A stretch of DNA of 64,000 bases from a virus: the IMG/VR virus record IMGVR_UViG_3300030104_007872, positions 1 through 64,000 of that record; one strand, written 5' to 3'. A program made the translations under genes and the position numbers. How positions within the stretch are numbered: the stretch's first letter is position 1; every line of letters begins with the position of its first letter. Positions 838 to 40,596 of this stretch are shown here, piece after piece. Below the pieces are notes generated by a model. It worked only from the letters and a program-made list of their open reading frames with translations, was not told the origin of the DNA and did no database searches.

Positions 838-866
838 AATCTAACCCACAAATAGGTAAATAGCAA
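838..866 (-). promoter_or_regulatory. sigma70-type early promoter
   Basis: TTGCTA-N17-TAGATT with A-rich upstream tract. Confidence 0.5.
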
Positions 867-911
867 GGATTATTTTATGTTTTCCCAAGTTTTATTCGCG
901 TGATAGCTTGT

Positions 912-999
912 GTAAGTCGTTGATACTTAACGAGTTACGCGGCGCGGGCTGGCCCCCGCGCCGTAACTCCTTGACGCTTAACGAGTTACGTTGTCAAGT
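912..999. repeat. early-region element copy 1 (27-bp palindrome, 24-bp GC hairpin, 27-bp palindrome, then TGTCAAGT)
   Basis: GTAAGTCGTTGATACTTAACGAGTTAC 912-938, GCGGCGCGGGCTGGCCCCCGCGCC 939-962, GTAACTCCTTGACGCTTAACGAGTTAC 963-989. Confidence 0.95.
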
Positions 1000-1016
1000 G
1001 TTTTTATTTATTTTTT

Positions 1017-1298
1017 TTAGCAGGGCTTAATCTTCTCAGCCCACGCCTTCATCTCAAAGCCACGATCATCAACGAACCGAAGCGCACCCGTGTCCTTGTC
1101 GGCAATGATGCCGAACTTGATCGCACCCATAAGCTGGCGCATAAACTTTGTAGCATAGAACCACTTTAGTTCTCCAGCATTGGCATCAAGTTGCATACCC
1201 CTGTTCTCCGCCCACTCCACGGAGAAGGTAGTGCCAGCCGCGTAAGGGCCGAAGTTTCCAGTGAGGACGAAGGTGGTAGGAAGGTCATTCATATTCAT
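1017..1298 (-). CDS. hypothetical early protein (leaderless)
   Basis: 93-aa ORF; ATG 5 nt after the -10 box. Confidence 0.8.
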   Translation of the reverse strand: MNMNDLPTTFVLTGNFGPYAAGTTFSVEWAENRGMQLDANAGELKWFYATKFMRQLMGAIKFGIIADKDTGALRFVDDRGFEMKAWAEKIKPC

Positions 1299-1303
1299 GC
1301 CTA

Positions 1304-1332
1304 ACTATACCACAGGTTGATTTAAAAGTCAA
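1304..1332 (-). promoter_or_regulatory. sigma70-type early promoter, extended -10
   Basis: TTGACT-N17-TATAGT with TG extension and A-tract upstream. Confidence 0.85.
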
Positions 1333-1379
1333 GTAGTTTTTTTGTGTTTCGGTGATTTTTTTTTCGAGTAACAACTTCT

Positions 1380-1467
1380 GTAAGTCCTTCACTGTCAACG
1401 AGTTACGCAGCGCGGGATGGCCCGCGCCCCGTAAGTCCTTGAGGCTTAACGAGTTGCGGTGTCAAGT
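1380..1467. repeat. early-region element copy 2
   Basis: Boxes 1380-1406 and 1431-1457, GC core 1407-1430. Confidence 0.95.
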
Positions 1468-1473
1468 TTTTTT

Positions 1474-1923
1474 TTATTTTAATTTAAAAAATGCGTGACC
1501 TCCCCAAAAGGCGACGGGCTTATGACCTCGCGCCCACTTGACCTTGCCAGTCTTCCATAGCTTTATAGTCATGTAGTGGTCGGCTTGGTTGATTACTTCG
1601 GTGTTCACCTTGTCCATGTTGCGAGCTAACTGCCAAGCATATTCTGCTTGTGGTAGAGTTAGCAAGAGATCCATTTTTTTACGGTTCGGGTCGTTCTTAT
1701 TCCAGCAACTGAATTGCCACGGTTGCAAGCATACCTGTTTAAAAGAAAGATTTCTTTTTTGCGCTCTGACTTTGATACAGGCCGCGACTGCATACATACC
1801 CGCCCGACCATCCCCGCGAGCTTCCGCGAGAATGGTCTGGGCAAGTATGCGTTGCTCACTACCTTTTGATTGTATTAATTGCGCGATTAGTAAACAGATT
1901 ATTATGAGAGCTTTGGATAACAT
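1474..1923 (-). CDS. SleB/Hydrolase_2-family cell wall hydrolase with N-terminal hydrophobic signal
   Basis: LAQTILAEARGDGRAGMYAVA, QFSCWN and GGHAFF motifs; start MLSKALIIICLLIAQL preferred. Confidence 0.85.
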   Translation of the reverse strand: MLSKALIIICLLIAQLIQSKGSEQRILAQTILAEARGDGRAGMYAVAACIKVRAQKRNLSFKQVCLQPWQFSCWNKNDPNRKKMDLLLTLPQAEYAWQLARNMDKVNTEVINQADHYMTIKLWKTGKVKWARGHKPVAFWGGHAFFKLK

Positions 1924-1996
1924 GGGTATAAGGCTAGGCGTTTTTATTTTTTCGGTTATCAAGATACTGGTGCGGATATTTTTGCTGAACATAACT

Positions 1997-2326
1997 TTAC
2001 CCTACCCACTTAACCACCTCAGCGACAGGCTCGCCGTTGATCTTTTCGATCCTGCCGACACGCATGGTGATATGGCGATTTTCGCCAGTTTCCATTTCCA
2101 CGACATCGACAGAGATGACAGCGTTGCCGTTAGACTCGGCAATCCATGAGGACTCAACGTCATGGATGAGGAACTTGCGAATGACGTCCGTGCCATGGTG
2201 GGAAACGGCACAGCAGTAGTCAACGACTTTATCGTTGAGAGCCTCGCGGAACTTGTCAGTGCGGAAAGCGTGAGAAGCGGGGAACTTGTGGAACAGGTCA
2301 GTAAGAGTTGAGATAGAGAATTGCAT
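1997..2326 (-). CDS. hypothetical early protein
   Basis: 109-aa ORF downstream of promoter 2367-2395. Confidence 0.75.
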   Translation of the reverse strand: MQFSISTLTDLFHKFPASHAFRTDKFREALNDKVVDYCCAVSHHGTDVIRKFLIHDVESSWIAESNGNAVISVDVVEMETGENRHITMRVGRIEKINGEPVAEVVKWVG

Positions 2327-2366
2327 AGGTAGTTTTTAGAGTTAAGTTAATGTTTTATTATAGGTA

Positions 2367-2395
2367 ACTATACCACAGGGTCAGGTATAAGTCAA
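2367..2395 (-). promoter_or_regulatory. sigma70-type early promoter
   Basis: TTGACT-N17-TATAGT. Confidence 0.85.
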
Positions 2396-2408
2396 GGGAA
2401 AAGATCAA

Positions 2409-2549
2409 TTATTTTTCGTTTTTTATTTCGTCGATGATATTGGCTTCATGCCAAACATGCCCGCCAGCATCCTCAAACAGATCCCCGCCAAGGGGCATCA
2501 TGTCGTTATCTTCGATGAACTTATTGATCTGATCCTCTGTGATTTCCAT
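2409..2549 (-). CDS. small acidic protein, 46 aa (MEITEDQINKFIEDNDMMPLGGDLFEDAGGHVWHEANIIDEIKNEK)
   Basis: Hand-translated; ATG 5 nt after the -10 box of promoter 2555-2583. Confidence 0.75.
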   Translation of the reverse strand: MEITEDQINKFIEDNDMMPLGGDLFEDAGGHVWHEANIIDEIKNEK

Positions 2550-2554
2550 GCCTG

Positions 2555-2583
2555 AATATACCACAGCCTCAGCGAATAGTCAA
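2555..2583 (-). promoter_or_regulatory. sigma70-type early promoter
   Basis: TTGACT-N17-TATATT. Confidence 0.85.
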
Positions 2584-2654
2584 ACACTTTTTATTGTTTT
2601 TTTATCTTTTTTTTCTTAACTTTTTACTTGACAAGGTTTTGAGTATTAACTTGT

Positions 2655-2742
2655 GTAAGTCGTTGGTTATCAAGGAGTTACGCGGCGCGGGCAGGCCCCC
2701 GCGCCGTAAGTCGTTGAGTATCAGGCAGTTACGGTGTCAAGT
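2655..2742. repeat. early-region element copy 3
   Basis: Boxes 2655-2681 and 2706-2732, GC core 2682-2705. Confidence 0.95.
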
Positions 2743-2757
2743 ATTTTTTTTACTTTT

Positions 2758-2997
2758 TTAATCCCATTTTTGCCACAGCACCTTGCCACCCTTGGAGAAG
2801 ACGCGCTGGCGGAGGACGGGACAGCCAAGCTCACCCTCGAAACGGCGCGTGACAGCACCCTGAAAGGCCATGGCCTTCTTAGGTGACGGTGAGATGCACA
2901 CGCGGGTGTCCGTCCCGCACTCCCAGTTGCCACCCAAGGAAGGCGGGCATTGCTGGAACTCGATGACGGTGAACTTGAAAAGGTTATTTTGAAACAT
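2758..2997 (-). CDS. hypothetical early protein (leaderless)
   Basis: 79-aa ORF; ATG 5 nt after the -10 box. Confidence 0.75.
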   Translation of the reverse strand: MFQNNLFKFTVIEFQQCPPSLGGNWECGTDTRVCISPSPKKAMAFQGAVTRRFEGELGCPVLRQRVFSKGGKVLWQKWD

Positions 2998-3002
2998 GCT
3001 AT

Positions 3003-3031
3003 ACTATACGACAGGCTAAGGTTAAAGTCAA
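3003..3031 (-). promoter_or_regulatory. sigma70-type early promoter
   Basis: TTGACT-N17-TATAGT. Confidence 0.85.
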
Positions 3032-3057
3032 GAGAAAAAAGGAATTATTTTTTGGGG

Positions 3058-3285
3058 TTAGCAAGCCATCCGATGGATGAACTCGCAAGTCCCGCGAAAG
3101 TCGCGGATGTCATCGCCCGCGTCACGCGCATCGTAGGCGAGGGACAGCACACACTGTATAGTGTGATTATCCACATCAGCCACGCCGTCGAAGGCATCGA
3201 CAAGCATCGCGTAGCGATGTGCCTTAGAAACATTAAGGCGGATGAAACGCAGGGCGGAAACAACAAGGTCATATGATGTAAGCAT
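3058..3285 (-). CDS. hypothetical early protein (leaderless)
   Basis: 75-aa ORF; ATG 5 nt after the -10 box, which selects this frame over 3045..3272. Confidence 0.75.
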   Translation of the reverse strand: MLTSYDLVVSALRFIRLNVSKAHRYAMLVDAFDGVADVDNHTIQCVLSLAYDARDAGDDIRDFRGTCEFIHRMAC

Positions 3286-3290
3286 AGGTA

Positions 3291-3319
3291 ACTATAACAC
3301 AGCCCTAGATTAAAGTCAA
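3291..3319 (-). promoter_or_regulatory. sigma70-type early promoter
   Basis: TTGACT-N17-TATAGT. Confidence 0.85.
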
Positions 3320-3347
3320 GGGAAAAGATGTTTTATTTTTGTTTTTT

Positions 3348-3479
3348 TTAACGGTCGGGGCTACCAAGGTAGACCCCGCGAATCTTATCGCTTGCCCAGC
3401 TAACAAAGCCAAACACAGGCACGGCATAAACACAGACAAGAAACAAGTAAAGGGCGACGGTATGCATTAGGTCATTCAT
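3348..3479 (-). CDS. small single-pass membrane protein, 43 aa
   Basis: Hand-translated MNDLMHTVALYLFLVCVYAVPVFGFVSWASDKIRGVYLGSPDR; ATG 6 nt after the -10 box. Confidence 0.7.
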   Translation of the reverse strand: MNDLMHTVALYLFLVCVYAVPVFGFVSWASDKIRGVYLGSPDR

Positions 3480-3485
3480 GGGGTA

Positions 3486-3514
3486 ACTATACCATGCCCT
3501 GAGCTAACCGTCAA
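3486..3514 (-). promoter_or_regulatory. sigma70-type early promoter
   Basis: TTGACG-N17-TATAGT. Confidence 0.85.
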
Positions 3515-3561
3515 GTCTTTTTTTTATTTTTATTGTATTTTTTTTATGCGTGTTAACTCTT

Positions 3562-3669
3562 GTAAGTCGTTGACTGTCAAGGAGTTACGCTGCGCGGGTA
3601 GGCCCCCGCGTCGTAACTCGTTGATACTCAGGTAGTTATGACTGCTAGTCGTTCAGCATGATGTCAAGT
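3562..3669. repeat. early-region element copy 4
   Basis: Boxes 3562-3588 and 3613-3639, GC core 3589-3612; TGTCAAGT displaced 20 nt further out. Confidence 0.93.
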
Positions 3670-3815
3670 TTTTTTTTCCATTTTTTTCGGGCGAGTGTCT
3701 CATCGTTACCACACGATGCAAGCAGACGCTTGAAGCTCTCCCACGTTGGCCGTGGCTGTGCCATCTCTTCCCATGAGCGCAAGCGTTCCTGTGGTGTCTC
3801 GATGATTCGCTTCAT
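3645..3815 (-). CDS. small protein, 56 aa (MKRIIETPQERLRSWEEMAQ...)
   Basis: Hand-translated; ATGA overlap with the stop of 3812..3931. Confidence 0.6.
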   Translation of the reverse strand: MKRIIETPQERLRSWEEMAQPRPTWESFKRLLASCGNDETLARKKWKKKLDIMLND

Positions 3816-5029: not shown

Positions 5030-5081
5030 AACACAAAAAAGCTCATAGCCCCAAAAACATTAATAAGTGTAATAATCTTGG

Positions 5082-5984
5082 ATGAGTCTTCCATATAGTG
5101 AATTTCCCGTTTACGTTGGACAGCCGAATAGTGATTCGGTAACCAACGAGAAAAGCAATTTCCTTGCAGCTACAGATGTGAACGTTAGTTATGCCGCGAG
5201 CATGACGCCGAAGCGAAGTGTTGTGGGAATAGGCGTAGCAGATCCCGATCCCAACAAAAGCATAGATCAATCCAATGCATTTACTTTTGGCGGTCCACTC
5301 ACAGCGAATATTTCTTTTGGTTTATTCTTGAACAATTCCGTCGGGGTGGGGGAGGATGGTTACTCTTTTTTAACGGGAAGCAACCAAGATAAGTATTTTC
5401 CAATACAAGTGGGAAGCGGTAAATTTGAAAGATGTTATTTAGATAGCTTTTCGGTTGATGTCCAGCCATACCAGCCAGTTAGCCTACAGGTTAATTTTAC
5501 TTCTCTCCGACCAGAGACGGGGGTTGCGATTTCTGGCGATTCAACACCATACAATGACGAGCATCCACCATTTGATTCTGATGAAGTAATTTATGGCCAC
5601 ACCTGTGCAGTGGCAGGAATGTCAACGCTATTTGGTAACGTTCAATCACAAATACAATATTCAAAAACATTTTCCAGAACCCCAGTTCTCACCTTGGGTT
5701 CGCTGGCCGCTGAAACGGCACTGTTGGATGAAGTGCAGCATCAGATGGTGGTGCAGGCAACAGGTCTTAACGAAATGATGCGATATACAGGAATTGGCAT
5801 CGGCACCACTAATCCTCTACCAAATCCCGTAACAGTTAACTTAACCAATGTGGATGGCGACACAAACTTCTATTTAAAAAGTTTAGATATGACTGCGGGT
5901 GCGCGAGTAAATACTCAAAGTTACGCCATGGCGGGAGGAGACACATTGGTAACAACTACAACTTTTACGCAGGCTTTAGTGTAA
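5082..5984 (+). CDS. tail-tube-fold structural protein (paralogue of 19648..20865 and 31958..32752)
   Basis: CYLDSFSVDVQPYQPVSLQVNF and FSRTPVLTLGS resemble motifs in the other tube-like proteins; GTGTAA upstream. Confidence 0.6.
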   Translation: MSLPYSEFPVYVGQPNSDSVTNEKSNFLAATDVNVSYAASMTPKRSVVGIGVADPDPNKSIDQSNAFTFGGPLTANISFGLFLNNSVGVGEDGYSFLTGSNQDKYFPIQVGSGKFERCYLDSFSVDVQPYQPVSLQVNFTSLRPETGVAISGDSTPYNDEHPPFDSDEVIYGHTCAVAGMSTLFGNVQSQIQYSKTFSRTPVLTLGSLAAETALLDEVQHQMVVQATGLNEMMRYTGIGIGTTNPLPNPVTVNLTNVDGDTNFYLKSLDMTAGARVNTQSYAMAGGDTLVTTTTFTQALV

Positions 5985-6008
5985 TTTTAGTGTAACTATA
6001 TATGTTAC

Positions 6009-6728
6009 ATGGCAATTAAAAAACCCTCGAACACCTTAGAGTTAAAACCACATTTTCACCACTCGATCAAGTTCAAAGAGAGGCGGTTCAAATTCACGGC
6101 CAAACAAAAGAAATTCCTAAGTATTCTTTTAGAGCCCGCTAACCAAATATTATTCGTTTCTGGACCAGCAGGTTCCAGCAAAACATATATGTCTCTTTAC
6201 GGTTGTTTGCGTTTAATGGCAGATGATACCGACAGGGAACTACTTTATGTCCGAAGTATAGCAGAAAGCGCAGATAAAGGATTAGGTAGCCTCCCTGGAG
6301 ATATAAGTGAAAAATTCAATCCATTTTTAATGCCGCTTTATGATAAGTTAGATGAAATCATTTTTGAGGGTGATAGGGATTTCCTGAGAAGGCAGGAAAG
6401 AATTTCCGCAGTCCCCATCAACTTTATGCGTGGCGCAAGCTGGAACAATAAACTCGTCATTGCGGATGAAGCTCAAAATTTTACCTTCAAAGAATTAACC
6501 ACGTTGATAACCCGTATCGGAGAGCAAAGTAAACTTATAATTTGCGGGGATTTTATGCAAAGTGATATAAATGGCAAAAGCGGCTTCCAAGAAATGTTTA
6601 ATCTTTTCAAAGACGATATCTCACAAGAAAACGGAATTCTATCATTTGCGTTTAACCAAAATGACATCGTAAGGAGTAAAATACTCAAGTTTATCGTTTC
6701 TAAATTAGAATCTCATAAAAAAGTGTAA
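6009..6728 (+). CDS. phoH: PhoH-family ATPase
   Basis: GPAGSSKT, LGSLPGD, FMRGASW, ADEAQN, GDFMQSD and DIVRS motifs. Confidence 0.95.
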   Translation: MAIKKPSNTLELKPHFHHSIKFKERRFKFTAKQKKFLSILLEPANQILFVSGPAGSSKTYMSLYGCLRLMADDTDRELLYVRSIAESADKGLGSLPGDISEKFNPFLMPLYDKLDEIIFEGDRDFLRRQERISAVPINFMRGASWNNKLVIADEAQNFTFKELTTLITRIGEQSKLIICGDFMQSDINGKSGFQEMFNLFKDDISQENGILSFAFNQNDIVRSKILKFIVSKLESHKKV

Positions 6729-6853: not shown

Positions 6854-7183
6854 ATGAGTCATTTATTTTGTCACAGTTGCGGAACCAAATTAGAATATGC
6901 ACACGCAAAACCAAATTTTTGCGTAAAGTGTGGCACCCCATTGGGTAATAATCTTTCGCAGGCATCGCAGCCCGCTGTCACTGCTCCTACCCCCCAACTC
7001 GAAGAAGACGAAACAAATACGGAACACGTTCCGCATATTGCAAATTTTCAAGTTGAAACCGAAGCGTCCGCTCGTAACACTTTCACAATAGGCTCATTGG
7101 CGGGAGAAAACACTGCTCCCGATTATATACCGAGGCGGGGAAGCCGCTCTCTCGATGATCTTATAGATGAAAGAGGGGGATAA
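6854..7183 (+). CDS. zinc-ribbon protein
   Basis: FCHSCG...PNFCVKCGTPL. Confidence 0.75.
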   Translation: MSHLFCHSCGTKLEYAHAKPNFCVKCGTPLGNNLSQASQPAVTAPTPQLEEDETNTEHVPHIANFQVETEASARNTFTIGSLAGENTAPDYIPRRGSRSLDDLIDERGG

Positions 7184-7865
7184 ATATACTTATGAAGATT
7201 TCTCTGATGTTATTGACCTCGCTATAAAAAAGCAGAGATCGAAATGGAGATTAAATGCGGTTAAATGGTTTGACTTCGACGATGTAGAACAAATCATTAA
7301 AACCCATATTGCAAAAAAATGGCATATGTGGGATCAGGAGCGCCCGCTGGAACCGTGGATTGGCAGGATCATCTCCAATCAGTTACGAAATCTAATCAGA
7401 AACCATTACGGAAATTATGTAAAGCCTTGCACTAATTGTAAATTTGCCCGAGCGGACAATTGCAGTTTAACGTCAAGCGGCAAACAGGATTCTTCCTGCG
7501 ATTTATACGCAAAATGGGAAAAATCCAAAAAATCAGGGCTAGAGTTGAAGATCCCCCTGTCTATGGAGGATTTTACTCATGAAATTGAAAATAGAAAATA
7601 TGTTGATTTTGATTTCGGAGGCTCACTGAAAAAGCTAAATATGTATATGGAGATAAAATTAACCGCAACTCATTACATTGCTTACCGAATGTTATACTTC
7701 GAAGACTGCACCGAAGAAGATGTTGCGCGTTACATGGGTTATAAGATATCGCCACAAAAAAAGAAACTTGGATATAGACAAGTAAAAAATTTAAAAAAGA
7801 AATTCCTTGAGGTCGCCTTGGAAATTCTAAACGAACAAGACATTATAAGTGATGGATCTAACTGA
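7167..7865 (+). CDS. phage sigma-factor-like protein with a Cys4 insertion
   Basis: Region-2-like DFDDVEQ...WDQERPLEPWIGRIISNQLRNLIR; region-4-like HTH TEEDVARYMGY; CTNC...C...C. Confidence 0.7.
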   Translation: MKEGDKYTYEDFSDVIDLAIKKQRSKWRLNAVKWFDFDDVEQIIKTHIAKKWHMWDQERPLEPWIGRIISNQLRNLIRNHYGNYVKPCTNCKFARADNCSLTSSGKQDSSCDLYAKWEKSKKSGLELKIPLSMEDFTHEIENRKYVDFDFGGSLKKLNMYMEIKLTATHYIAYRMLYFEDCTEEDVARYMGYKISPQKKKLGYRQVKNLKKKFLEVALEILNEQDIISDGSN

Positions 7866-8901
7866 ACAGCAAAGTGAGTTCTTGCGTGAAAATGCAGCGC
7901 GGATACCAGATCTAATCAATTTGACTAGGCAATGTTTTGAAAACGACGCTTTAGACGGTAGATCTAAGGAGGGCAGGGCGGTAAGGAAATTTTTGGTTGA
8001 AAATTGTATTGATTTTCGCACCACATCTCGTCAACCAACCGAAAATATTGAGTTTACACGCGAACAGCGTGAATTCATACTCCAACAAGCCGAAAACGGC
8101 CTCTCTTCCCTGGAGATTGCTAGGATAGTTTTCCCCGACCGTAGGGTGTCACCCTTGAGTAATGAGCAAAGGGCAGTATTAGCTGAAATTCGTTCTGTTA
8201 ATCCTGATATTTTACCTTCACAAGATAGTGGCGCCCTCAATTCATACATTTCACCCAAGTCTACATCGAGAATCATTAAAAAAATCAATGACGCTACTGG
8301 TTTAGGCTTAGATGAATCGAAGATTAACAGACAAAAGCAAACTTGCATAGAGAAGCTTGCGGTCAATCTCTCCAACTCTAGATTTTTAAAAATTATAAAT
8401 AATTACCTCAATGTGGAAGACCGACTGCTGTTCGAGCATGAGCTTATCCGCTTAACGTGGGATAAGCCCGACTTAACGGCAGATGAGATTAATTTGTATT
8501 TAAATGTTTGCAAGGAGGTAATTAATTTGGAGGTGATTAGCTCTCACCTTAATAAATTGAATGACATGTTCGATGTAGCCGACGAACAGGCTGAAATGTC
8601 CATCAGGCTCGCGGAGATCATCAAGGCCAAGAGTTCGGAGTATCATCAGTGCGAGACGAGGATAGAAAACCTAACTAAAAAGCTTCAAGGTGATCGGGGT
8701 GAGAGAATGAAGAAGATGCAGAAGGAGAATGCTTCGTTTCTTTCTATTGTTCAATTATTTCAAGAAGAAGAAGAGCGTGAGACGATGATTCGTATTGCTG
8801 AAATGCAAAAAGAGGCCGTGCGGGAAGAAGCCGACAGATTGGAAAACATGTCGGAGTGGAAAGCTCGGGTATTAGGAATATCAAAGGATGATGCAGTTTA
8901 A
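7849..8901 (+). CDS. hypothetical HTH/coiled-coil protein, possible packaging accessory or small terminase
   Basis: 350-aa ORF with GLSSLEIARIVF HTH-like segment, in the operon leading to TerL. Confidence 0.45.
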   Translation: MMDLTEQQSEFLRENAARIPDLINLTRQCFENDALDGRSKEGRAVRKFLVENCIDFRTTSRQPTENIEFTREQREFILQQAENGLSSLEIARIVFPDRRVSPLSNEQRAVLAEIRSVNPDILPSQDSGALNSYISPKSTSRIIKKINDATGLGLDESKINRQKQTCIEKLAVNLSNSRFLKIINNYLNVEDRLLFEHELIRLTWDKPDLTADEINLYLNVCKEVINLEVISSHLNKLNDMFDVADEQAEMSIRLAEIIKAKSSEYHQCETRIENLTKKLQGDRGERMKKMQKENASFLSIVQLFQEEEERETMIRIAEMQKEAVREEADRLENMSEWKARVLGISKDDAV

Positions 8902-9895
8902 ATGCAAAGAGTGTGACCAAGAGTTCAAGTCTCTCAGGAGTCTACATGCACACATTAAAAAACATGATGTGTTATTGGGTGATTATTATGTGAAGCATTT
9001 CCAAAGAAGGGATAAGCTTACTAATGAGTTGCTTCCATTCAAGAAATATGATCAATACTTCAATATGCATTTTCTCAATGTGTCGAACATGAGAGAGTGG
9101 TGCGAAACTGCTCCTAAGGAAGATGTTGAGGATTTTGTGATTAGTTCCATTAAAAACAAGCTAACCTCGAAAGGGATCGAAGCAGGGCCACCTGCACTTT
9201 ACCTTGAAACCGCTGGATTACCTGACATAGAGATGTGCAAGAGCCTCTTTGGGAGTTATACCGAAACTTGCAAGAAGTTTGGCATGTTGCCAATGCTATC
9301 GGGGCAACTGCCAAAGTCATTTGAGAAAGACTTCTCAGACACACCCATAATAGTAGATACAAGAGAAAAGCAGCCACTGCAATTTAAAAATAGTAGGTTT
9401 TTGAAATTGGACGTTGGGGACTATGGCGTGTCGGGAGACTTTTATGATTACACCTTTGTAGACAGGAAATCTTACCAGGATTTTGCAGCAACACTAACAA
9501 CCTGCTACAGGAGATTCGTAAAAGAGATAGAGAGAGCGCGTAACTTAGGATGTTTTTTGTTTATAGTCGTTGAGTGTGGCTTTGACGATATCAATTACAA
9601 AAATAGCTCCATGTATAAAAAATTTAACTTGGGTTACCTCTATCATAACATGAGGGGCATTCAGGCTCAATATTCAGATTGCTGCCAGTTCGTCTTCAGT
9701 GGCTCCCGCGAGAAAAGCGTAGAGCTAATACCAAAGATCCTTGTTTTGGGCTCGAAGCTCTGGAATGTGGATCTGCAATATTTTTGGAACAAACAAATTA
9801 AGAAAGATGGCTTGGGAGACAGGAAAACAGAAGTTACACACGAAGTTCAAAGATATAAACCAGTATATTCTAAGCAAAGAGGGGTTTTTGGATGA
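8888..9895 (+). CDS. C2H2 zinc finger plus ERCC4/XPF-family nuclease
   Basis: CKEC...LHAHIKKH; IIVDTREKQP, LDVGDY, VDRKSYQDF and FIVVE. Confidence 0.8.
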   Translation: MMQFKCKECDQEFKSLRSLHAHIKKHDVLLGDYYVKHFQRRDKLTNELLPFKKYDQYFNMHFLNVSNMREWCETAPKEDVEDFVISSIKNKLTSKGIEAGPPALYLETAGLPDIEMCKSLFGSYTETCKKFGMLPMLSGQLPKSFEKDFSDTPIIVDTREKQPLQFKNSRFLKLDVGDYGVSGDFYDYTFVDRKSYQDFAATLTTCYRRFVKEIERARNLGCFLFIVVECGFDDINYKNSSMYKKFNLGYLYHNMRGIQAQYSDCCQFVFSGSREKSVELIPKILVLGSKLWNVDLQYFWNKQIKKDGLGDRKTEVTHEVQRYKPVYSKQRGVFG

Positions 9896-11672
9896 GACAG
9901 AGGCAAAAATTTTGCTTTATAAGTTTCTCAGGGAAAATCCATCATTTGCATCCGAACTTCTAACTGGGGTAAAATTATTCCCCTTTCAACATATGGCTAT
10001 AAAGGCCATGATGGAGTCGGATTACTTTTTGGGCATCTGGAGCCGTGGAATGTCCAAAAGCTTCTCTACGGCCATTTTCGCGCTCTTAGACGCTATTCTG
10101 AATCAAGGTGTGCAGATAGGTATTCTGTCTAAGTCTTTTAGGCAATCAAAAATGATCTTCAAAAAGATAGAGGAGATATCAAAAAGTCCCAAGGCAACCT
10201 TTTTTGCTCAGTGCATTACCCGAACCTCAAAAATGAATGATGAGTGGGTCATGGAGATAGGCAGGAGCAGTATTCGCGCTTTACCATTGGGAGATGGCGA
10301 AAAATTGAGGGGCTTTAGGTTTCAAAGAATGATTATTGATGAGTTGTTGTTGATGCCCGAAAAGATTTACAATGAAGTGATTATGCCATTCTTGTCTGTT
10401 GTAGACAACCCGACGGAACGTCAAGAAGTTTATGATTTAGAAACCGAACTGATTGAACAGGGAAAAATGAAAGAGGAGGAGAGGCGTAGGTGGCCAAACA
10501 ACAAAATCATAGGTCTTTCCTCAGCTTCTTACAAGTTTGAATATCTTTATAAGCTTTATCAACAGTATGAGCGGTTAATTCTAAACGAGAACACTCAAGA
10601 CGGCGCACATAGAACGATAATGCATTTTAGCTACGACTGTGCGCCTGAACAATTGTATGACCAGAATTTAATTAGCCAAGCTCAAACGAGCATGAGTGAG
10701 TCACAGTTCGATAGGGAATTTGGAGCTTTCTTTACGGATGATAGCTCTGGTTACTTCAAGGTTAGCAAAATGGCCGCTTGCACTCTGGCTGATGGCGAAG
10801 GCCAATCAGTTGAGGTGGTAGGCAACCCAAAAGATGAATACATCTTGGCTTTCGACCCATCTTGGTCGGAAAGTGAAAGCTCAGATGATTTTGCAATATT
10901 ACTTATAAAACTTAATAAAGACCTTAGAAAGGGCACCGTAGTTCACAGTTACGCTTTATCTGGCGCAAATCTAAAAACTCATATCAAATACATGGCGTAT
11001 TTGTTAAATCATTTCAATATAGTTGCTGTCGTGGGGGACTACAATGGGGGGGTGCAATTTATGAATTCCTGCAACGAAAGCGACATCTTCAAAAAAGTTA
11101 ATTTGAGATTAGAGACTCTCGAAGCTGATTTAGATAAAATTCCAGATTATGAAAAAAATCTTAGACGCTTAAAGAATCAATATAATAAATCATCTAGAAA
11201 ATTTGTTTTACTAAGAAAACCCACTTCGTCTTGGATTCGCTCTGCCAATGAAAGCTTGCAGTCAGCCTTTGACCATAAAAAGATATTTTTTGCGGGAGCA
11301 GCCATGGATGATGATTATAGTATTCAGCGCAAGGCGAGGATACCGATCAAAGATTTAAAATTCTTAAAAAATGATTCTAACGAGGCTTCTAGCGCTGGAG
11401 CAAGAATGATTGATTTCGTAGAGCACCAAAAGGACATGATGGATCTGATCAAAGTCCAATGCGCTTTAATTAACATAACCACTTCTGCTCAGGGAACTCA
11501 AAGTTTTGATTTGCCACCCAGCCTGAGAAAACAAAAGGGTTCTGACAAGGCTCGCAAAGACTCTTACTCTGCGTTAGTTTTAGGTAACTGGATGATGAAT
11601 GTTTACTACGATATGCAAAGCCATGAAGGGGTGACTGGACAAGAAACGTTTACCCCAATGTTTATTTCCTAA
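9807..11672 (+). CDS. terL: terminase large subunit
   Basis: LFPFQ, SRGMSKS (Walker A), LRGFR, IIDE (Walker B), LAFDPS and KDSYSAL nuclease motifs; ATG at 9807. Confidence 0.92.
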   Translation: MAWETGKQKLHTKFKDINQYILSKEGFLDETEAKILLYKFLRENPSFASELLTGVKLFPFQHMAIKAMMESDYFLGIWSRGMSKSFSTAIFALLDAILNQGVQIGILSKSFRQSKMIFKKIEEISKSPKATFFAQCITRTSKMNDEWVMEIGRSSIRALPLGDGEKLRGFRFQRMIIDELLLMPEKIYNEVIMPFLSVVDNPTERQEVYDLETELIEQGKMKEEERRRWPNNKIIGLSSASYKFEYLYKLYQQYERLILNENTQDGAHRTIMHFSYDCAPEQLYDQNLISQAQTSMSESQFDREFGAFFTDDSSGYFKVSKMAACTLADGEGQSVEVVGNPKDEYILAFDPSWSESESSDDFAILLIKLNKDLRKGTVVHSYALSGANLKTHIKYMAYLLNHFNIVAVVGDYNGGVQFMNSCNESDIFKKVNLRLETLEADLDKIPDYEKNLRRLKNQYNKSSRKFVLLRKPTSSWIRSANESLQSAFDHKKIFFAGAAMDDDYSIQRKARIPIKDLKFLKNDSNEASSAGARMIDFVEHQKDMMDLIKVQCALINITTSAQGTQSFDLPPSLRKQKGSDKARKDSYSALVLGNWMMNVYYDMQSHEGVTGQETFTPMFIS

Positions 11673-11721
11673 CATTTAAAAGTGGAAAGTTAACTTTGCA
11701 GTGTAATATAATCTGTAAAAT

Positions 11722-16819: not shown

Positions 16820-17959
16820 ATGAAAATTACTTTAAAAAGAACTCCAGAACAAGTCGAGCTTATCAAAGCTATGGCTTCACGCAACCGTAATGTTGCGTAT
16901 GAGGCGCAGGTTGCACTTGCTGAATTTATCGGACCCGTGTTGGCCGAGGTTCTCAATCAAGCTCCAACAGTGAGCAATCTGTTCCAGTCTCTTCAATTCA
17001 ATGCAGACGACAACCCAAGCATTCCGCTGGATCTCTACTACAACATTTCCGATGAGGATTATGTTAACGTATGGAGCCAGAGTCACGCTGGCGGTCTTCC
17101 TCAGAACCAAGTCCTTCCGACTGCTTCTGAGTTGAAGCTTGCTACTTACAGCCTTGACGCTGCGGTAAGCTTTGATCGTCGCTATGCGGCCAAAAGCCGT
17201 ATGGATGTAGTCAGCAAGACATTCACTCGTGTTGCACAAGAGATTCTCCTCAAGCAGGAGAGGACTTCCGCAACATTGCTGATGACTGCTCTCGCTAACG
17301 CTTCAACAACAGTTAATTCTATCGCTCACAAGCACGTTCAACTCTCAAATGTTAACGACCGCTTTGTGTTGGCCGACCTGAATGAATTGCTTACTCTTGC
17401 CAAGAGGATTAACACCTCATGGGTTGGCGGAACGCCAACCGAGCGCAGGAAGGGTATTACCGACCTGATCGTTTCTCCTGAAGTTGTTCAGGAGCTTCGC
17501 GCAATGGCCTACAATCCTATCAACACCGCAGCCGCCCCAATGGCATCTGCTCTTAAGGATAGTATTCCAGCTACCGATGAAATCAGAAATGCCGTTTATA
17601 ATAACGCAGGTCTTCCTGAGTTTTACGGTGTTTCCATCATGGAAATCAACGAGTTGGGAACTGGTCAAAAGTTCAACACGATCTTTGATACTGCCGCTGG
17701 CAGCACTGAGTATTCGGCTGCTGATGGCGCTCGTAAGTCCCAGTTTACTGGAGCTACGAATCAAATCCTCGTGGGTGTGGATCGCACACGCGACTCCCTC
17801 ATCCGTGCAGTAGCAACCGATGCTGAGAATGGCAGTGAGATGAATCTCATCGCTGACGACCAGTATAGTATTCGCCAAAATAAGATTGGCTACTTCGGTT
17901 CCATGGAAGAAGGCCGTGTGGTTCTTGATAACCGCGCCCTTGTTGGTAAGATCGTATAA
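16820..17959 (+). CDS. major capsid protein (HK97 fold)
   Basis: Position, 379-aa size, TDLIVSPE, EFYGVSI and KIGYFGSMEEGRVVLD; strong terminator after it. Confidence 0.9.
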   Translation: MKITLKRTPEQVELIKAMASRNRNVAYEAQVALAEFIGPVLAEVLNQAPTVSNLFQSLQFNADDNPSIPLDLYYNISDEDYVNVWSQSHAGGLPQNQVLPTASELKLATYSLDAAVSFDRRYAAKSRMDVVSKTFTRVAQEILLKQERTSATLLMTALANASTTVNSIAHKHVQLSNVNDRFVLADLNELLTLAKRINTSWVGGTPTERRKGITDLIVSPEVVQELRAMAYNPINTAAAPMASALKDSIPATDEIRNAVYNNAGLPEFYGVSIMEINELGTGQKFNTIFDTAAGSTEYSAADGARKSQFTGATNQILVGVDRTRDSLIRAVATDAENGSEMNLIADDQYSIRQNKIGYFGSMEEGRVVLDNRALVGKIV

Positions 17960-17981
17960 TCAATCTAACCTACCCCACAAG

Positions 17982-18015
17982 AGGGTCGCTCCGAAAGGAG
18001 CGGCCCTTTTTTTTT
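17982..18015 (+). terminator. rho-independent terminator
   Basis: AGGGTCGCTCC-GAAA-GGAGCGGCCCT followed by a T-run. Confidence 0.92.
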
Positions 18016-18047
18016 GTAATTTACTTTTCCTGTGTATATAATAGTAT

Positions 18048-18518
18048 ATGGCAAAGAAAAAGACAGGTAAGAAAAAGACCGCTAAAAGCAAGGGTGAGCT
18101 TCCTTTTGAGGAGGTAACCACGGGCCAAGAACAACCCAAGAAAAAGGGTATCTTGGAAGAAATTGAGGAAATGAAGGCTAGCGGTAACACAAAGAGCGAG
18201 GAATTCAAAAACAAGATAAAGGAGCTAGAGGTTATCTTGGGCGTTGATGAAGTGAATCCGTTTGGCACTAATGAGCTTGACATCTTCGAAGACAACTTGA
18301 GGGAAATGAATGTGACCGACATGATGAGACTTGCTCAAAAAGTTGGCCTCAATCCCCATCAAGAAAGAACTCGACTCAAGAAGAATCTCATTAATGAATT
18401 TAAGGGTTACAACCGCAATAACCGCAGGAATATCGCGCCAAATATGAGCAAGACTATTGAGCTTGACCCAAACAACCCACAACACGCTGAAACTATTAAA
18501 ATTCTACGAGAATTCTAA
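18048..18518 (+). CDS. hypothetical protein
   Basis: 156-aa ORF, GTGTAT motif upstream. Confidence 0.75.
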   Translation: MAKKKTGKKKTAKSKGELPFEEVTTGQEQPKKKGILEEIEEMKASGNTKSEEFKNKIKELEVILGVDEVNPFGTNELDIFEDNLREMNVTDMMRLAQKVGLNPHQERTRLKKNLINEFKGYNRNNRRNIAPNMSKTIELDPNNPQHAETIKILREF

Positions 18519-18538
18519 TAATTGGTGTAATAGTTGGT

Positions 18539-19024
18539 ATGGCGTTAACTGCATTAGGTGAATTAGCTTCGGGAATTCTAAATACTGAATTTGATGATAA
18601 TACTGGAATCGCTACGACAGGAGCGATTAGTGGATGGCTATTCGAAAACCTTGGGCGATTAAATACTTGGATTTATACTGATTTCAGCGGACAGGATGCA
18701 ACTGGCTCTTCAGCAGGAGCATTCAACATTGAGGCGCAGAACATCCATAAAGAATTATATCTTTATCACTACTACAACAAGGAGGCCAGAAACGCCCTCA
18801 GGGGAATCATTCACTCCAATGTGAGTGGAGATAATATTTTATCCTTAAAGGACGGAGAAAGCTCTGTAACGTTCGTTAACAGGAATGAGGTGTCCAAAGT
18901 CTATAAGGGGCTTGCAAGCGATTCTATGGCGAATGTGGAGCGACTAGCGGCACAATACAACATATATCAGGCTGAGCCTAGACAATTAGGTGGCGTTGAC
19001 GGTGACACGGGCTATCTCTACTGA
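18539..19024 (+). CDS. putative head-tail adaptor
   Basis: Position after MCP; SLKDGESSVTF typical of adaptors. Confidence 0.55.
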   Translation: MALTALGELASGILNTEFDDNTGIATTGAISGWLFENLGRLNTWIYTDFSGQDATGSSAGAFNIEAQNIHKELYLYHYYNKEARNALRGIIHSNVSGDNILSLKDGESSVTFVNRNEVSKVYKGLASDSMANVERLAAQYNIYQAEPRQLGGVDGDTGYLY

Positions 19025-19344
19025 GAGGTGGACTTATGACCGTTATACAACTTTTCCATGATTTTCTCCACGTCGAGTTCCAGCATCGAAATTTTTAAAT
19101 TTTGTTTTACGTCGTCTGGGAGGCTTCCACTCCCCCATTTGCCCGCAGGCCAATCGCGTACAAAAATTGCGTGTTTCTCGACATCCTTTCCAATCATTTG
19201 GATTTGGAAATCGTTATGCTGAACTGAGCTTTGCAAGTTCGATGCCCACCAAACAATACCCGCAGCCTGAACGGCTAGACCAATTCCAAGAGAGATGAAG
19301 AACTTGCTGTCTACGGCGCGTTCTTTCCTTGCGTTATGGCTCAT
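19018..19344 (-). CDS. single-pass membrane protein, possibly lysis-related
   Basis: TM segment FFISLGIGLAVQAAGIVWWAS followed by coiled coil. Confidence 0.55.
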   Translation of the reverse strand: MSHNARKERAVDSKFFISLGIGLAVQAAGIVWWASNLQSSVQHNDFQIQMIGKDVEKHAIFVRDWPAGKWGSGSLPDDVKQNLKISMLELDVEKIMEKLYNGHKSTSQ

Positions 19345-19347
19345 GGC

Positions 19348-19572
19348 TTAGCCCTGTATGCCATCAAATAGTCGGGCAGCTTCACTCACAAGTCTCATCT
19401 TGCTTTCGTATGGTAAGCCTAGATCGGAGGCATATTTTTTAGCCTCAGCGTCATTCATAGCGAGTATTTTATACTTGAGACTCTTAGTTCCCTTTATATC
19501 GCCCCAATCTATACCTGTATTAACTTTCTTAGGTTTTTCCTTTTGAACGGGTTTCTTATCTTCGTCATTCAT
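19348..19572 (-). CDS. hypothetical protein
   Basis: ATG at 19572 lies 11 nt after GTGTAA; the longer track start runs through a terminator. Confidence 0.65.
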   Translation of the reverse strand: MNDEDKKPVQKEKPKKVNTGIDWGDIKGTKSLKYKILAMNDAEAKKYASDLGLPYESKMRLVSEAARLFDGIQG

Positions 19573-19590
19573 AACATTTACTATTACACA

Positions 19591-19619
19591 AAAAACCCCG
19601 CTTGTGCAGCGGGGTTTTT
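19591..19619 (-). terminator. rho-independent terminator after the tail tube gene (bidirectional shape)
   Basis: AAAAACCCCGCT-TGTGC-AGCGGGGTTTTT. Confidence 0.88.
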
Positions 19620-19647
19620 CATTTTTTGGTTGATTTAACAAGGACTA

Positions 19648-20865
19648 TTAATCCATTCCGCCAGCATCAGTATCGTAGGTATTGACCGCAAGAGGATATA
19701 TTGGCTGATTGCCTGACAAAACTCCCGTATATACTGTGCAGAAAATACCGTGGTCGGTATCGGCAACACCACCGATTTGAGTTGTAAATGTCAGATCCAC
19801 CGACTTGTTAGCTCCTATGCTTGAAGAGGTGTTCTGACTGTCCATTGTGCAGTTCTTAAGAAGAAACTCATATGCGTTCGTGTCATCCGCCCTGTTTATT
19901 TGCAGCGTTACATCCTTCTCCAAGTTCTTGTCAATGATGTCGGCAAGCACGAAAGCATTTTCGTCGTTTACGAGAGCACTCACGGAAAGTGATGCCACAA
20001 TTGGGAAATCCACAGTTCTTGCATATGCGAACCTGCTCCCAAGTCTGTCGAGAGGCGTTCTGGAAAGTGGAACTGACAGAGAGGCGCTTTGAATGTGCGC
20101 TCCAGTCGCGCCTCCAAGTGCAATGTTGGTTGACTCTTGGGCTCCTTGCAACTCAAGAGTAATATCTCCTGGGCGTAGGGCCAGAGTTTGAGCATCGGTC
20201 ACTTTCCTATCCGCAGCCGAAGGCGCTCCACTTTGGGCGTAAGGAACTTGACACAGCGCATCATATGATGTCCCCTCCTCTTGGTTCACACCTGGACTAT
20301 CTATGCTCATATAACCACCCGTGGCTACTGAGTCTACATTGACATCCGAAATTACGTTAGATCCCTCACAGGTTACAGAAACAGTTGGAATCGAGCCCAC
20401 AGAACAATCAAATGTATAGTCGCTGACATACATGTTGCCAAGACCAAGGAATGTTCCAGTTTTCTTATCGGCGGCATCCTGACCTTCATTAACCGTAAGG
20501 ATAAAGAAGTTAGAGCCTGAAGTTGCTGTTTGGTGACCAGAAGTGAAACTACCACTCATGTTAGCAGTGGAAGCGGAGCCTGCATTATTTTTGCCAGTAA
20601 TGACATAAAAGTTTAAAGCCTTTTCATTAAAACCATCTGTTGGATAATAAGTGAAATCCAAGCTAACGGTGGGCGCGTCAATAACCTCCGTACCGATACG
20701 GGCCAGTTCGCCATATTGGTTAACGTCTGTGCGAGAAAGGTTAAAGCCATAGTTGGCGCTTTGAACCCTCTGTAGTTGAACGTGGTCGCCACTTGTTGTG
20801 GACGCTGCATTAAAACTACAGTAGAGGGCTTCGGACTGGTAAATTACTCTGTTTCTTGATGCCAT
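19648..20865 (-). CDS. major tail tube protein
   Basis: Beta-rich, two repeated tube-like halves (RVQSANYGFNLSRTDVNQYG and HIQSASLSVPLSRTPLDRLG); own terminator; follows neck genes. Confidence 0.75.
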   Translation of the reverse strand: MASRNRVIYQSEALYCSFNAASTTSGDHVQLQRVQSANYGFNLSRTDVNQYGELARIGTEVIDAPTVSLDFTYYPTDGFNEKALNFYVITGKNNAGSASTANMSGSFTSGHQTATSGSNFFILTVNEGQDAADKKTGTFLGLGNMYVSDYTFDCSVGSIPTVSVTCEGSNVISDVNVDSVATGGYMSIDSPGVNQEEGTSYDALCQVPYAQSGAPSAADRKVTDAQTLALRPGDITLELQGAQESTNIALGGATGAHIQSASLSVPLSRTPLDRLGSRFAYARTVDFPIVASLSVSALVNDENAFVLADIIDKNLEKDVTLQINRADDTNAYEFLLKNCTMDSQNTSSSIGANKSVDLTFTTQIGGVADTDHGIFCTVYTGVLSGNQPIYPLAVNTYDTDAGGMD

Positions 20866-20921
20866 AATAAAAAGATCTTTATTTTGTTTACAGTTTAATC
20901 GTTAAAATATGAAATTCAGTA

Positions 20922-21776
20922 TTAGTTTTCAAAGCGATATCTGTGTTGTTGTATGTCGAAATCTATGAAGCCAACATAAAGATCGTTAGCCAAGCTTTTC
21001 CGAACTCTATCGCTTAACTTAGAGGTCTTAGCGCTTTCCACATAAAACATTGTGTTGCCCCCTTGAAATTCGTTTTTTAGCCCCGTATAATTATAGCTGC
21101 CATCTTTTAAATCACCTAATTCTGTTATGGGGTATCCAGTAAACGGGATGTTGCCTATAACCTCATCCACAGAATCCGCAAAAATAGATAGCACCCCATC
21201 TAGTTGGTAGGGGTCTTCAGCAAGAACCACCGCTTTAACCATAACCTCAGTTTGTTGCAGGCCACCAAATGCATAAGGCTTATTTTGAGTGTCCGCTGCG
21301 GCAAGAAAAATAGCGGGAACCACATCATCATAAGGCGCGATGTAATCATAATTTGCTGATGGTAGTCTGGAATTAACCTTATATTTATTTTCTACCACCA
21401 AATCCTCCTCGGTATCATTGGTGAAATAGATGTTAAAATCCTTAACTGCAAAACTACCAGTTACCGCCGCACCTGTGGGCGCCCCAGATGCCAACACTCT
21501 CCCATTATCAAAATCTAATACAACGCCATCGTTTCTACCCGAAAATCCACCATTAATGAAAACGCCAGTGGGAATGTTTGCCCCTGTTATTGAAGAGTCT
21601 GCAACCCATTGTTTATATGGACTTCCAAAAACCGTGTAGGTTGAATCTATTCGGGGGTCGTCGTAGTAAAAAAAATCTCCCGTTTTATCTGAATAAGCCT
21701 CACCTTTGGTGGTGAGAAAATTATCAAACCACAAAAAGAAAGAGGTTGTTAATCTATGTTGGAACTGTTCAATCAT
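20922..21776 (-). CDS. putative tail terminator/completion protein
   Basis: Directly upstream of tube gene; VPAIFL and GFIDFDI. Confidence 0.55.
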   Translation of the reverse strand: MIEQFQHRLTTSFFLWFDNFLTTKGEAYSDKTGDFFYYDDPRIDSTYTVFGSPYKQWVADSSITGANIPTGVFINGGFSGRNDGVVLDFDNGRVLASGAPTGAAVTGSFAVKDFNIYFTNDTEEDLVVENKYKVNSRLPSANYDYIAPYDDVVPAIFLAAADTQNKPYAFGGLQQTEVMVKAVVLAEDPYQLDGVLSIFADSVDEVIGNIPFTGYPITELGDLKDGSYNYTGLKNEFQGGNTMFYVESAKTSKLSDRVRKSLANDLYVGFIDFDIQQHRYRFEN

Positions 21777-22354
21777 TTGAGTTCTTCGAAACGTTGAGTG
21801 TATTTCTTAATAAGCGCGGAAATGTAAGGAGTGTTGCTAAATCTTCCACCCCTTACCTTTACACGGCTTTGAATCGCTGCGCCCGATCTACCTTTATTTT
21901 TTCGCAAAAGGTAGCCCAATCCCGAAATCCCGCGCTCTATTCCTTGAGCCCAACTTCTTCCAAATGCCCAAGGCAACGGCGTAATGGCAAAGATATCTTC
22001 AGCAGTTGGTATACTAACCTGAAAGTTGTTGCCTATTCCTCCTTGTGTAATTGGCGCTATATATCTAATCTCTGTTGCTTCAAGGAGTGAAAGTATCGGC
22101 ATTATGGGTTCGTCGCCACTATCAAAACCAATAAAAGCAAATAAGTTGGTTACCCCATTCAGGGTTCCGCTGATATTTGTTCCACTAGGGCCGCTTTTGA
22201 TTTCTTGCGTCACAGGATGACCTAAGAATTCAGCTATCATCTCCTTTTTAATTCTTTTAAATTTTTCAGAGATCTCTTTTTCAAAGGGTTTTCTTAAAAG
22301 CTTGGGTGTTTGCCGCTTTAGAGCCCTTCTAACGTCTTGTGGTAATGTGGCCAT
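21773..22354 (-). CDS. putative neck/tail completion protein
   Basis: Synteny; SWAQGIERG and NTPYISALI resemble HK97 gp10-like proteins. Confidence 0.5.
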   Translation of the reverse strand: MATLPQDVRRALKRQTPKLLRKPFEKEISEKFKRIKKEMIAEFLGHPVTQEIKSGPSGTNISGTLNGVTNLFAFIGFDSGDEPIMPILSLLEATEIRYIAPITQGGIGNNFQVSIPTAEDIFAITPLPWAFGRSWAQGIERGISGLGYLLRKNKGRSGAAIQSRVKVRGGRFSNTPYISALIKKYTQRFEELK

Positions 22355-22818: not shown

Positions 22819-22863
22819 ATTGATTTTTACACTTTTATTTATATAATAAGATAGGATTAAGGC

Positions 22864-23154: not shown

Positions 23155-23166
23155 AGGAATAAGGTT

Positions 23167-40580: not shown

Positions 40581-40596
40581 AGTGTAATAAATTTAA

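Follow-up and report, generated by a model that had tools for sequence, protein, structure and literature searches.

The first 64,000 nucleotides of the 78,084-bp virus record IMGVR_UViG_3300030104_007872 (this whole stretch is referred to as the window) contain four copies of a 78-base unit, which lie between small early genes and consist of two 27-base palindromes, here called boxes, around a GC-rich core. From the analysis of these copies and of related phage sequences we tentatively favor the reading that the unit is a transcription-unit boundary of an early region of the host-takeover type, doubling as homology for gene shuffling like that at the promoter-early stem-loop (PeSL) elements of T4-type phages. 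The GC-rich core would be a terminator-type hairpin, halting or weakening the transcription that runs on from the strong early promoters upstream, and the two dyads would each be bound, as double-stranded DNA and in a sequence-specific manner, by a dimeric protein. Given the fixed distance between the dyads, probably one complex would lie over both, and it may reinforce, gate or insulate the boundary. With 4 to 12 copies in each genome, the unit would also provide patches of homology, through which ordinary recombination could add, delete and swap gene cassettes.

The double-dyad unit and its place among the early genes

The pattern GTAASTCSTT-N7-AASGAGTTAC, with up to three mismatches, matched the window only at 912, 963, 1380, 1431, 2655, 2706, 3562 and 3613, and gave 16 strand-matches against 0.02 expected from shuffled sequences. 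The search of the remaining genome proposed in a preliminary description of this DNA detected no box beyond these eight in the 78,084-bp record at the same threshold. The four pairs around a GC core that had been described there were recovered, with a start-to-start spacing of 51 bp in every pair. Unit E1 (912..989) is made up of a box at 912-938, a core at 939-962 and a box at 963-989; the corresponding parts are 1380-1406, 1407-1430 and 1431-1457 in E2 (1380..1457), 2655-2681, 2682-2705 and 2706-2732 in E3 (2655..2732), and 3562-3588, 3589-3612 and 3613-3639 in E4 (3562..3639). All eight boxes have the 10-7-10 geometry of two arms around a 7-bp centre, and the centres are not the same among them. 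The 24-bp cores, GCGGCGCGGGCTGGCCCCCGCGCC and close variants, have a GC content of 83-96% as compared with 41-46% in the boxes, and form GC stems of 7-8 bp with a G-run followed by a C-run.

All the genes from approximately position 4900 down to base 1 are encoded on the minus strand, as are their promoters. The preliminary description had not stated the strand, and its observation that each unit sits just after a stop codon and before the next promoter holds when the region is read on the minus strand. In this direction, units E1 to E4 follow the stop codons at 1017, 1474, 2758 and 3645 (genes 1017-1298, 1474-1992, 2758-2997 and 3645-3815) by 27, 16, 25 and 5 nt, respectively, and all four end 45-72 nt ahead of the next sigma70-type promoter. 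The promoter after E1 is a probable one (TTGCTA-17-TAGATT at 838..866, minus strand, 45 nt from the unit), which was below the threshold of the promoter scan and was read from the sequence. The other three, also on the minus strand, are TTGACT-17-TATAGT at 1304..1332 after E2, with an ATG 5 nt after the -10 element, TTGACT-17-TATATT at 2555..2583, 72 nt from E3, and TTGACG-17-TATAGT at 3486..3514, 48 nt from E4. This arrangement supported the proposed role of the units as boundaries between blocks of early genes; the blocks comprise approximately 5, 3, 3, 1 and at least 3 genes.

The early minus-strand genes are driven by seven near-consensus TTGACT-17-TATAGT promoters located inside the array, most of which have an ATG 5-6 nt past the -10 element. 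Six early genes on this strand (ATGs at 1298, 2549, 2997, 3285, 3479 and 4214) begin at this distance from a near-consensus sigma70 -10 element, so that the early messages are probably leaderless. No Shine-Dalgarno sequence was found before any gene in the window, and leaderless translation seems to be the rule in this phage. Gene 1474-1992 (minus strand), which is similar to cell-wall hydrolases/endolysins (phrog_938) and lies inside the early region, is without a promoter of its own and comes after gene 1997-2326, from which a 4-nt gap (1993-1996) separates it.

The flanks of the units proved to be conserved, as had been described. The word TGTCAAGT with a T-tract is located at 992-999, 1460-1467, 2735-2742 and 3662-3669, shifted in the fourth copy by a 21-nt insert, and the opposite flank carries a conserved word of the AAGTT/AAGCT type. 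On the sense strand (minus), the E1 flank (992..1016) consists of an A-tract and ACTTGACA, the same word being present at 1460-1467, 2735-2742 and 3662-3669. ACTTGACA with its A-tract resembles an UP element and a -35 element, yet no -10 element follows. A promoter formed by the flanking TTGACA and the box was rejected because no -10 element lies at 16-18 bp on either strand, and a plus-strand small-RNA gene was rejected likewise. In relatives, the distance of the flank word from the unit varies, and some of them have it as the outer arm of a larger palindrome. A perfect hairpin distinct from the unit, TTGACAACCCCCGC-GCAA-GCGGGGTTGTCA, which has a GNRA loop and whose outer arm is the TTGACA word, lies immediately upstream of units with 58-bp spacing in three stretches (L128, L056 and L148), so that this -35-like word may belong to a stem and not to a promoter. 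Tandem short CTGTTAGA / TCTAACAG words, which may be a second protein site, were also observed beside units in L083, L098, L127 and L070 and at 142780-142890 of the larger record G001.

Conservation of the unit across uncultured phages

Exact-pattern scans of IMG/VR detected the junction of box and core in 37 stretches and the box in at least 120. When up to three mismatches were allowed, the search for the element in relatives, which the preliminary description had called for, found at least 826 boxes and at least 270 distinct paired units in at least 148 marine and freshwater stretches. Start-to-start spacings of 50 bp (152 units), 53 bp (31), 52 bp (25), 58 bp (24) and 51 bp (21) were counted among the 270 units listed, 233 of which were intergenic by crude open reading frame calls. 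The phage of the window itself was present in marine metagenomes of 11 studies. A PhoH gene was present in 59 stretches, and in each of these all boxes lay upstream of PhoH at a distance of more than 1.1 kb, where most coding is on the opposite strand (89 kb vs 22 kb); the boxes in three larger records (G001, G002 and G003) were confined to one or two clusters. These results indicated that the unit is a hallmark of the variable early region in one broad lineage of uncultured phages, among which PhoH identity ranges from 30 to 88%.

The unit is linked to the 3' ends of genes throughout this family. Of 157 oriented units, approximately half begin no more than 54 nt from the stop codon of the gene before them and 18 overlap this codon; in several units the TAA of a box is itself the stop codon. 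The distance to the next start codon is typically some 100 nt. A unit was located 2 to 48 nt behind 13 of the 14 homologues of gene 2758-2997, down to 31% identity, and -9 to +40 nt behind all 12 homologues of gene 3645-3815, down to 39% identity. Downstream of the unit that follows the homologues of gene 2758-2997, eight unrelated groups of sequences were found.

Between loci, the boxes were 77% identical (26% by chance) and the spacers 50% (41% by chance), the latter keeping only their length and GC content (82%). Among 58 non-redundant units, the box letters T2, A3, A4, T10, A18, A22, T24 and T25 never varied, and the variation at positions 5/23 and 8/20 was almost only between G and C. Watson-Crick pairing at these positions, within a box or between boxes, was 0.36-0.53 as compared with 0.41-0.52 expected, with a mutual information of 0.02-0.15 bits, and approximately half of the variable positions in the box stems were G-G or C-C mismatches. 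The suggested covariance analysis gave no covarying stem: 440-495 of 500 shuffles matched or exceeded the observed covariation count in the three-hairpin structure, and 497-500 of 500 did so in the long bulged hairpin. The fold of the whole unit as a long bulged hairpin, noted in the preliminary description, stood in terms of energy, as the window units folded better than shuffled sequences (z -2.8 to -5.9), but the good energies arise because the conserved letters happen to be dyad-symmetric and not from covariation. The fold energies were the same on both strands, with no G-U asymmetry marking a functional RNA strand. Because the conservation of the boxes comes without covariation and the two strands fold equally well, we read the palindromes as probable double-stranded protein sites rather than as selected hairpins, which agrees with the protein-bound signal offered earlier as one explanation. 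The spacing was that modal for the locus in 188 of 202 units and differed between sublineages; this rigidity within a genome suggested that probably one complex spans both boxes.

Sequence evidence for a terminator came from the PhoH-linked units with 58-60 bp spacing. Most of their spacers read, on the sense strand, GACCCC-(UUCG, GAAG or GUAG)-GGGGUC followed by GUUUUGG or AUUUUGC. A compensatory change from GACCCC/GGGGTC to GGCCCC/GGGGCC keeps the stem, and no U-run is present on the antisense strand. Judged from its sequence, the core of this sublineage is a canonical terminator, hairpin plus U-run, on the sense strand of the early genes. No other terminator-like site was found on the minus strand among the approximately ten promoters in 4 kb. 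In the T4-type phage RB49, PeSL211/210, a stem-loop with a G-run and then a C-run like the cores of the window, terminated transcription in vivo with roughly the efficiency of rrnB T1 (PMC2839356).

Several results weigh against a protein-assisted boundary. The window cores and the whole group of units with 50-53 bp spacing have no U-run on the sense strand, the hairpin being followed by the next box, so that termination by the window's own cores is, together with protein binding at the boxes, what we infer from sequence features. A terminator would not obviously need two flanking protein sites. The spacer hairpins of the family only moderately surpassed shuffled sequences (median z -1.2, 37% below -2), and the spacers within one genome are fairly alike (69% family-wide, 84% in the window), which means that the regularity may partly come from copy-to-copy homogenisation. 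No HU/IHF gene was found in the record, nor in the relative G001. Searches of the early proteins and their conserved neighbours against Pfam and PHROGs detected no DNA-binding domain except the sigma factor and zinc ribbons, and the early genes gave no family matches, so no candidate for the binding protein was found. The contigs of two RNA runs break at repeats (e.g. 1368 and 3627), and a DNA contig likewise starts at 858; the ends of the RNA contigs therefore cannot be read as transcript ends.

Cassette exchange and competing explanations

Gene-content breakpoints mapped to the units both in relatives and in metagenome contigs when this proposed check was made. The stretch L131 is without 3321-3480, with both breakpoints in promoter copies, and in L123 a block made up of the promoter P3031, gene 2758-2997 and the unit behind this gene is located elsewhere, with one breakpoint in the promoter and one in the unit. 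In a metagenome contig, the joint 921>1418 created a hybrid E1/E2 unit with gene 1017-1298 gone, and promoter-to-promoter joints (2415>3344 and 3487>2557) were detected in metagenome contigs as well. The synteny breakpoints were distributed equally over repeated promoters and units, as ordinary homologous recombination predicts. In G001, rated 100% complete, a 5.76-kb segment is present twice with 96.5% identity, one copy with the unit and the other with an unrelated 40-nt GC-core sequence. Each of the two segments (17577-23281 and 141906-147652 of this 147.7-kb record; L274 and L275) contains about 13 small minus-strand genes. An origin of the G001 box clusters in a circular concatemer or assembly wrap-around was rejected, the first 16 kb being unlike the region before the second copy.

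The preliminary description had stated that the window has no recombinase gene, and this applied to the entire record (G000) and to the three larger relatives G001, G002 and G003, in none of which a tyrosine recombinase (PF00589), a serine recombinase (PF00239) or a Y1 transposase (PF01797) was found. With no recombinase, differing box centres and no attC ends, the recombination idea survives only as PeSL-like homologous shuffling. On the sequence comparison, cassette exchange appears real and looks homologous; of the earlier suggestion that the units are recombination sites for cassette exchange, the breakpoints at the units were retained, and a dedicated site-specific system was not.

The evidence for protein sites applies equally to an operator pair, in which the dyads would bind a phage repressor or activator that switches the adjacent early promoters in the transition from early to middle expression, termination being incidental. 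All window units lie 45-72 nt upstream of a promoter, and a phage sigma factor beside the region means that a programmed switch exists. We nevertheless regard this as an unlikely, if conceivable, function, as the unit accompanies only 4 of the approximately ten early promoters in the window, is constant across the family neither in its distance from the downstream promoter nor in helical phase, has a strict sigma70-type promoter within 250 nt in only 31 of 129 cases, and remains linked to the gene before it even though the partner on the other side varies. That linkage to stop codons would equally suit an element acting purely at the RNA level, whose long bulged hairpin or three hairpins might be a terminator, a 3' stabiliser or a processing site of the RNase III type, as between the early genes of T7. 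The folding well below shuffled sequences and the sense-strand terminator with UUCG-type loops in the sublineage with 58-60 bp spacing favor it as well, but it is the sequence that is conserved and not the pairing: the box stems do not covary, about half of their variable positions are G-G or C-C, and stability shows no strand preference. Moreover, in the units with 58-60 bp spacing, transcripts ending at the U-run would exclude the second box, and a search of Rfam with the unit gave nothing at E up to 1, leaving this explanation quite unlikely.

A site-specific recombination site would bring the unit close to integrons, the gene and its 3' double palindrome forming a mobile module moved by a non-classical enzyme acting on the arm-spacer-arm boxes; the zinc-finger/ERCC4 nuclease encoded at 8888-9895 is one candidate enzyme. 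The 10-7-10 geometry resembles the core sites of tyrosine recombinases, the two dyads enclose a variable palindromic centre as in attC, the unit is linked to gene 3' ends and coincides with synteny breaks, and it is present in only one of the two nearly identical G001 segments. Such a dedicated phage cassette system is very unlikely, however, considering the absence of PF00589, PF00239 and PF01797 matches from the four records, the box centres that differ between copies, the missing attC end consensus, the promoters carried by the cassettes themselves, the breakpoints found equally inside promoters, and the 921>1418 joint, a hybrid unit of the kind expected from homologous exchange. A low probability of the same order is assigned to a docking site at which IHF, gyrase or another host enzyme of DNA architecture or topology would relieve the torsional stress of the many strong promoters. 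The IHF consensus WATCAR-N4-TTR occurs in 4 of the 8 window boxes and 244 of 540 family boxes (45%), the commonest box having TATCAACGAsTTA; the form is that of paired palindromic units outside genes, and the letters are conserved across phages as divergent as their PhoH identities of 30-88% indicate, which would fit a conserved host partner. On the other hand, 55% of the boxes are without the full consensus, a box variant with 53-bp spacing is without its TCAA core, and the boxes have more invariant letters than IHF needs. Hardly any weight is given to a selfish miniature mobile repeat, comparable to miniature inverted-repeat transposable elements, repetitive extragenic palindromes (REP) or Correia elements, that spreads in the early region and is merely tolerated. 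Its outer arms could act as terminal inverted repeats, and there are several copies per genome, always intergenic, with presence differing between the two G001 segments; against it, no clean empty site or target duplication was seen, the alternative allele being a different GC-core sequence, no transposase was found, the units are strictly in one genome region, and box conservation across very divergent phages argues for a function.

Genomic setting and relation to known systems

The early region adjoins a conserved module of genes, homologues of which are present in 36-59 related stretches. It encodes a tail-tube-like protein (5082-5984), PhoH (6009-6728), a zinc-ribbon protein (6854-7183, plus strand), a phage sigma factor of the sigma-70 family (7167-7865, plus strand), a 349-amino-acid protein with no assigned function (7852-8901), the zinc-finger/ERCC4 nuclease (8888-9895, plus strand) and TerL (9741-11672). 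The sigma factor and the small zinc-ribbon protein beside it have homologues in 44-57 related stretches, always next to the early region. The nuclease combines an N-terminal C2H2 zinc finger with an ERCC4 domain of the XPF/Mus81 type, has homologues in 40 related stretches, and is an unusual structure-specific nuclease for a phage. A search of PDB sequences with the 349-amino-acid protein gave nothing, and its single-sequence AlphaFold model (pLDDT 50) was too poor for searching. The word GTGTAAT, containing the -10-like TGTAAT, is located 14-16 nt before the ATG of many plus-strand genes without a -35 element (5060-5081, 5980-6008, 11695-11721, 18025-18047, 18515-18538, 40575-40596 and others), and is probably a middle or late promoter read with the phage sigma factor, again giving leaderless messages. 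The box is not a version of this motif, as it has an additional letter and is without the final T.

This phage has no cultured relative. Neither the region nor one unit matched any of 50,697 phage records by megablast and blastn, the sigma factor and the tube protein gave no match to cultured phages by tblastn, and TerL had only distant matches among them (22-26% identity, in Bacillus, Clostridium and Lactococcus phages). The unit family is apparently undescribed, as far as the literature was searched. A scan of bacterial genome contigs (596 Gb) for the box gave more than 120 matches in many phyla. Most of them were single perfect hairpins by tRNA genes or within unrelated repeats, and we estimate that such singles are at the chance level among the many hairpins with 10-bp stems in 596 Gb. 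Paired matches (L163, L182, L184, L194, L258 and L270) resemble phage contigs binned into metagenome-assembled genomes (MAGs). Naming a host from the bacterial matches was therefore rejected, and so was mimicry of CRISPR repeats, as the matches formed no regular arrays. L184, a contig of a Bdellovibrionota MAG, has three tandem boxes (1184, 1229 and 1274) at intervals of 45 bp, and its GC spacers are shorter. A dispersed bacterial repeat that is unrelated to the unit, but whose perfect hairpin matches the box pattern by coincidence and abuts a 13-25-nt run of C or G, was observed in L173, L174, L178, L180, L193 and L199 (a Latescibacterota chromosome) and in L160, L179 and L237, of which L160 and L179 are contigs of Treponema MAGs.

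Among known elements, the attC site of integrons reportedly consists of two dyads around a variable palindromic centre. The unit is built likewise, its two imperfect dyads enclosing a palindromic centre that varies and is often rich in GC; it is located at the 3' end of a gene cassette and occurs in arrays of small genes without assigned function. The proposed attC-type site was not sustained, however, since the unit has no RYYYAAC/GTTRRRY ends (it begins GTAAsTC and ends GAsTTAC, and GTTACGC/G fails in the purine run), its bulged fold shows no structural covariation, no integrase is present (PF00589 absent from G000, G001, G002 and G003), the cassettes have promoters of their own (the seven near-consensus ones within the array), and some genes here are without a unit. 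Core sites of the dif/loxP type share the two inverted arms around a 6-8 bp spacer; identical spacers in the partners and a recombinase are not shared, and the suggested tyrosine-recombinase-type site was thus reduced to its arm-spacer-arm shape, as the eight centres differ and no recombinase was found. The paired extragenic palindromic units behind genes in enterobacteria, REP and bacterial interspersed mosaic elements (BIMEs), are similar in form, and the roles proposed for them (protection of mRNA 3' ends, attenuation, and binding of IHF or gyrase) were likewise considered for the unit. Unlike the unit, REP hairpins are conserved in structure and mobilised by RAYT transposases; here the pairing is not selected, RAYT (PF01797) is absent, and the unit is confined to the phage early region. 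The host-takeover module of the Bacillus phage SPO1 contains many strong early promoters and terminators, and the HU-like protein TF1 binds specific sites in its early region. The dense small early genes with strong host-type promoters and terminator delimitation are common to both phages, and a sequence-specific architectural protein acting on the region is the likeness proposed for the unit. Unlike in SPO1, an HU-like gene was not found here, and SPO1 is not known to have a unit comparable to the double dyad.

The comparison with the PeSLs of T4-type phages, made in the preliminary description, was the most apt. PeSL cassettes have been described in RB49/phi1, PST/T4 and nt-1/KVP40 (Arbiol et al. 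2010, PMC2839356; Comeau et al. 2014, PMC4122927). Like the PeSL, the unit appears to be a composite joint of a terminator-type element and a promoter between small orphan early genes, with a GC stem-loop of a G-run and then a C-run, with AT-rich tracts (here A-tracts on the sense strand) and with strong sigma70-type promoters, here 45-72 nt downstream. In both systems the repeated copies are crossover points for the gain, loss and swapping of cassettes, represented here by L123, L131 and 921>1418 and by the varying partners downstream of gene 2758-2997 and its unit. Unlike in PeSLs, the stem-loop lies between two highly conserved 27-bp dyads whose spacing is fixed, conservation resides in these dyads and not in the promoter, and the unit goes along with the 3' end of the gene before it; moreover, this phage does not belong to the T4 type, and most of its genes are leaderless. 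The unit is therefore best filed as a much more elaborate variant of the PeSL-type composite joint, with a terminator-type core and what appear to be paired protein sites.

The early regions of lytic phages hold most of the genes for host takeover and anti-defence whose functions are unknown, and their turnover is fast. The unit provides a rigid and easily recognised signature that marks these regions in hundreds of uncultured marine phage contigs, as well as a testable control element that apparently joins paired protein sites to a terminator. Cassettes are gained, lost and swapped at the repeated units and promoters, which offer a physical explanation of the exchange. If the boxes bind a specific protein, the unit would represent a boundary or insulator of a new, protein-assisted type in phage transcription and a ready-made modular part. 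Should the boxes instead be the substrate of an enzyme, this would amount to a new system of cassette exchange, and an integron-like system of this kind would provide marine phages with a dedicated route for trading host-takeover genes.

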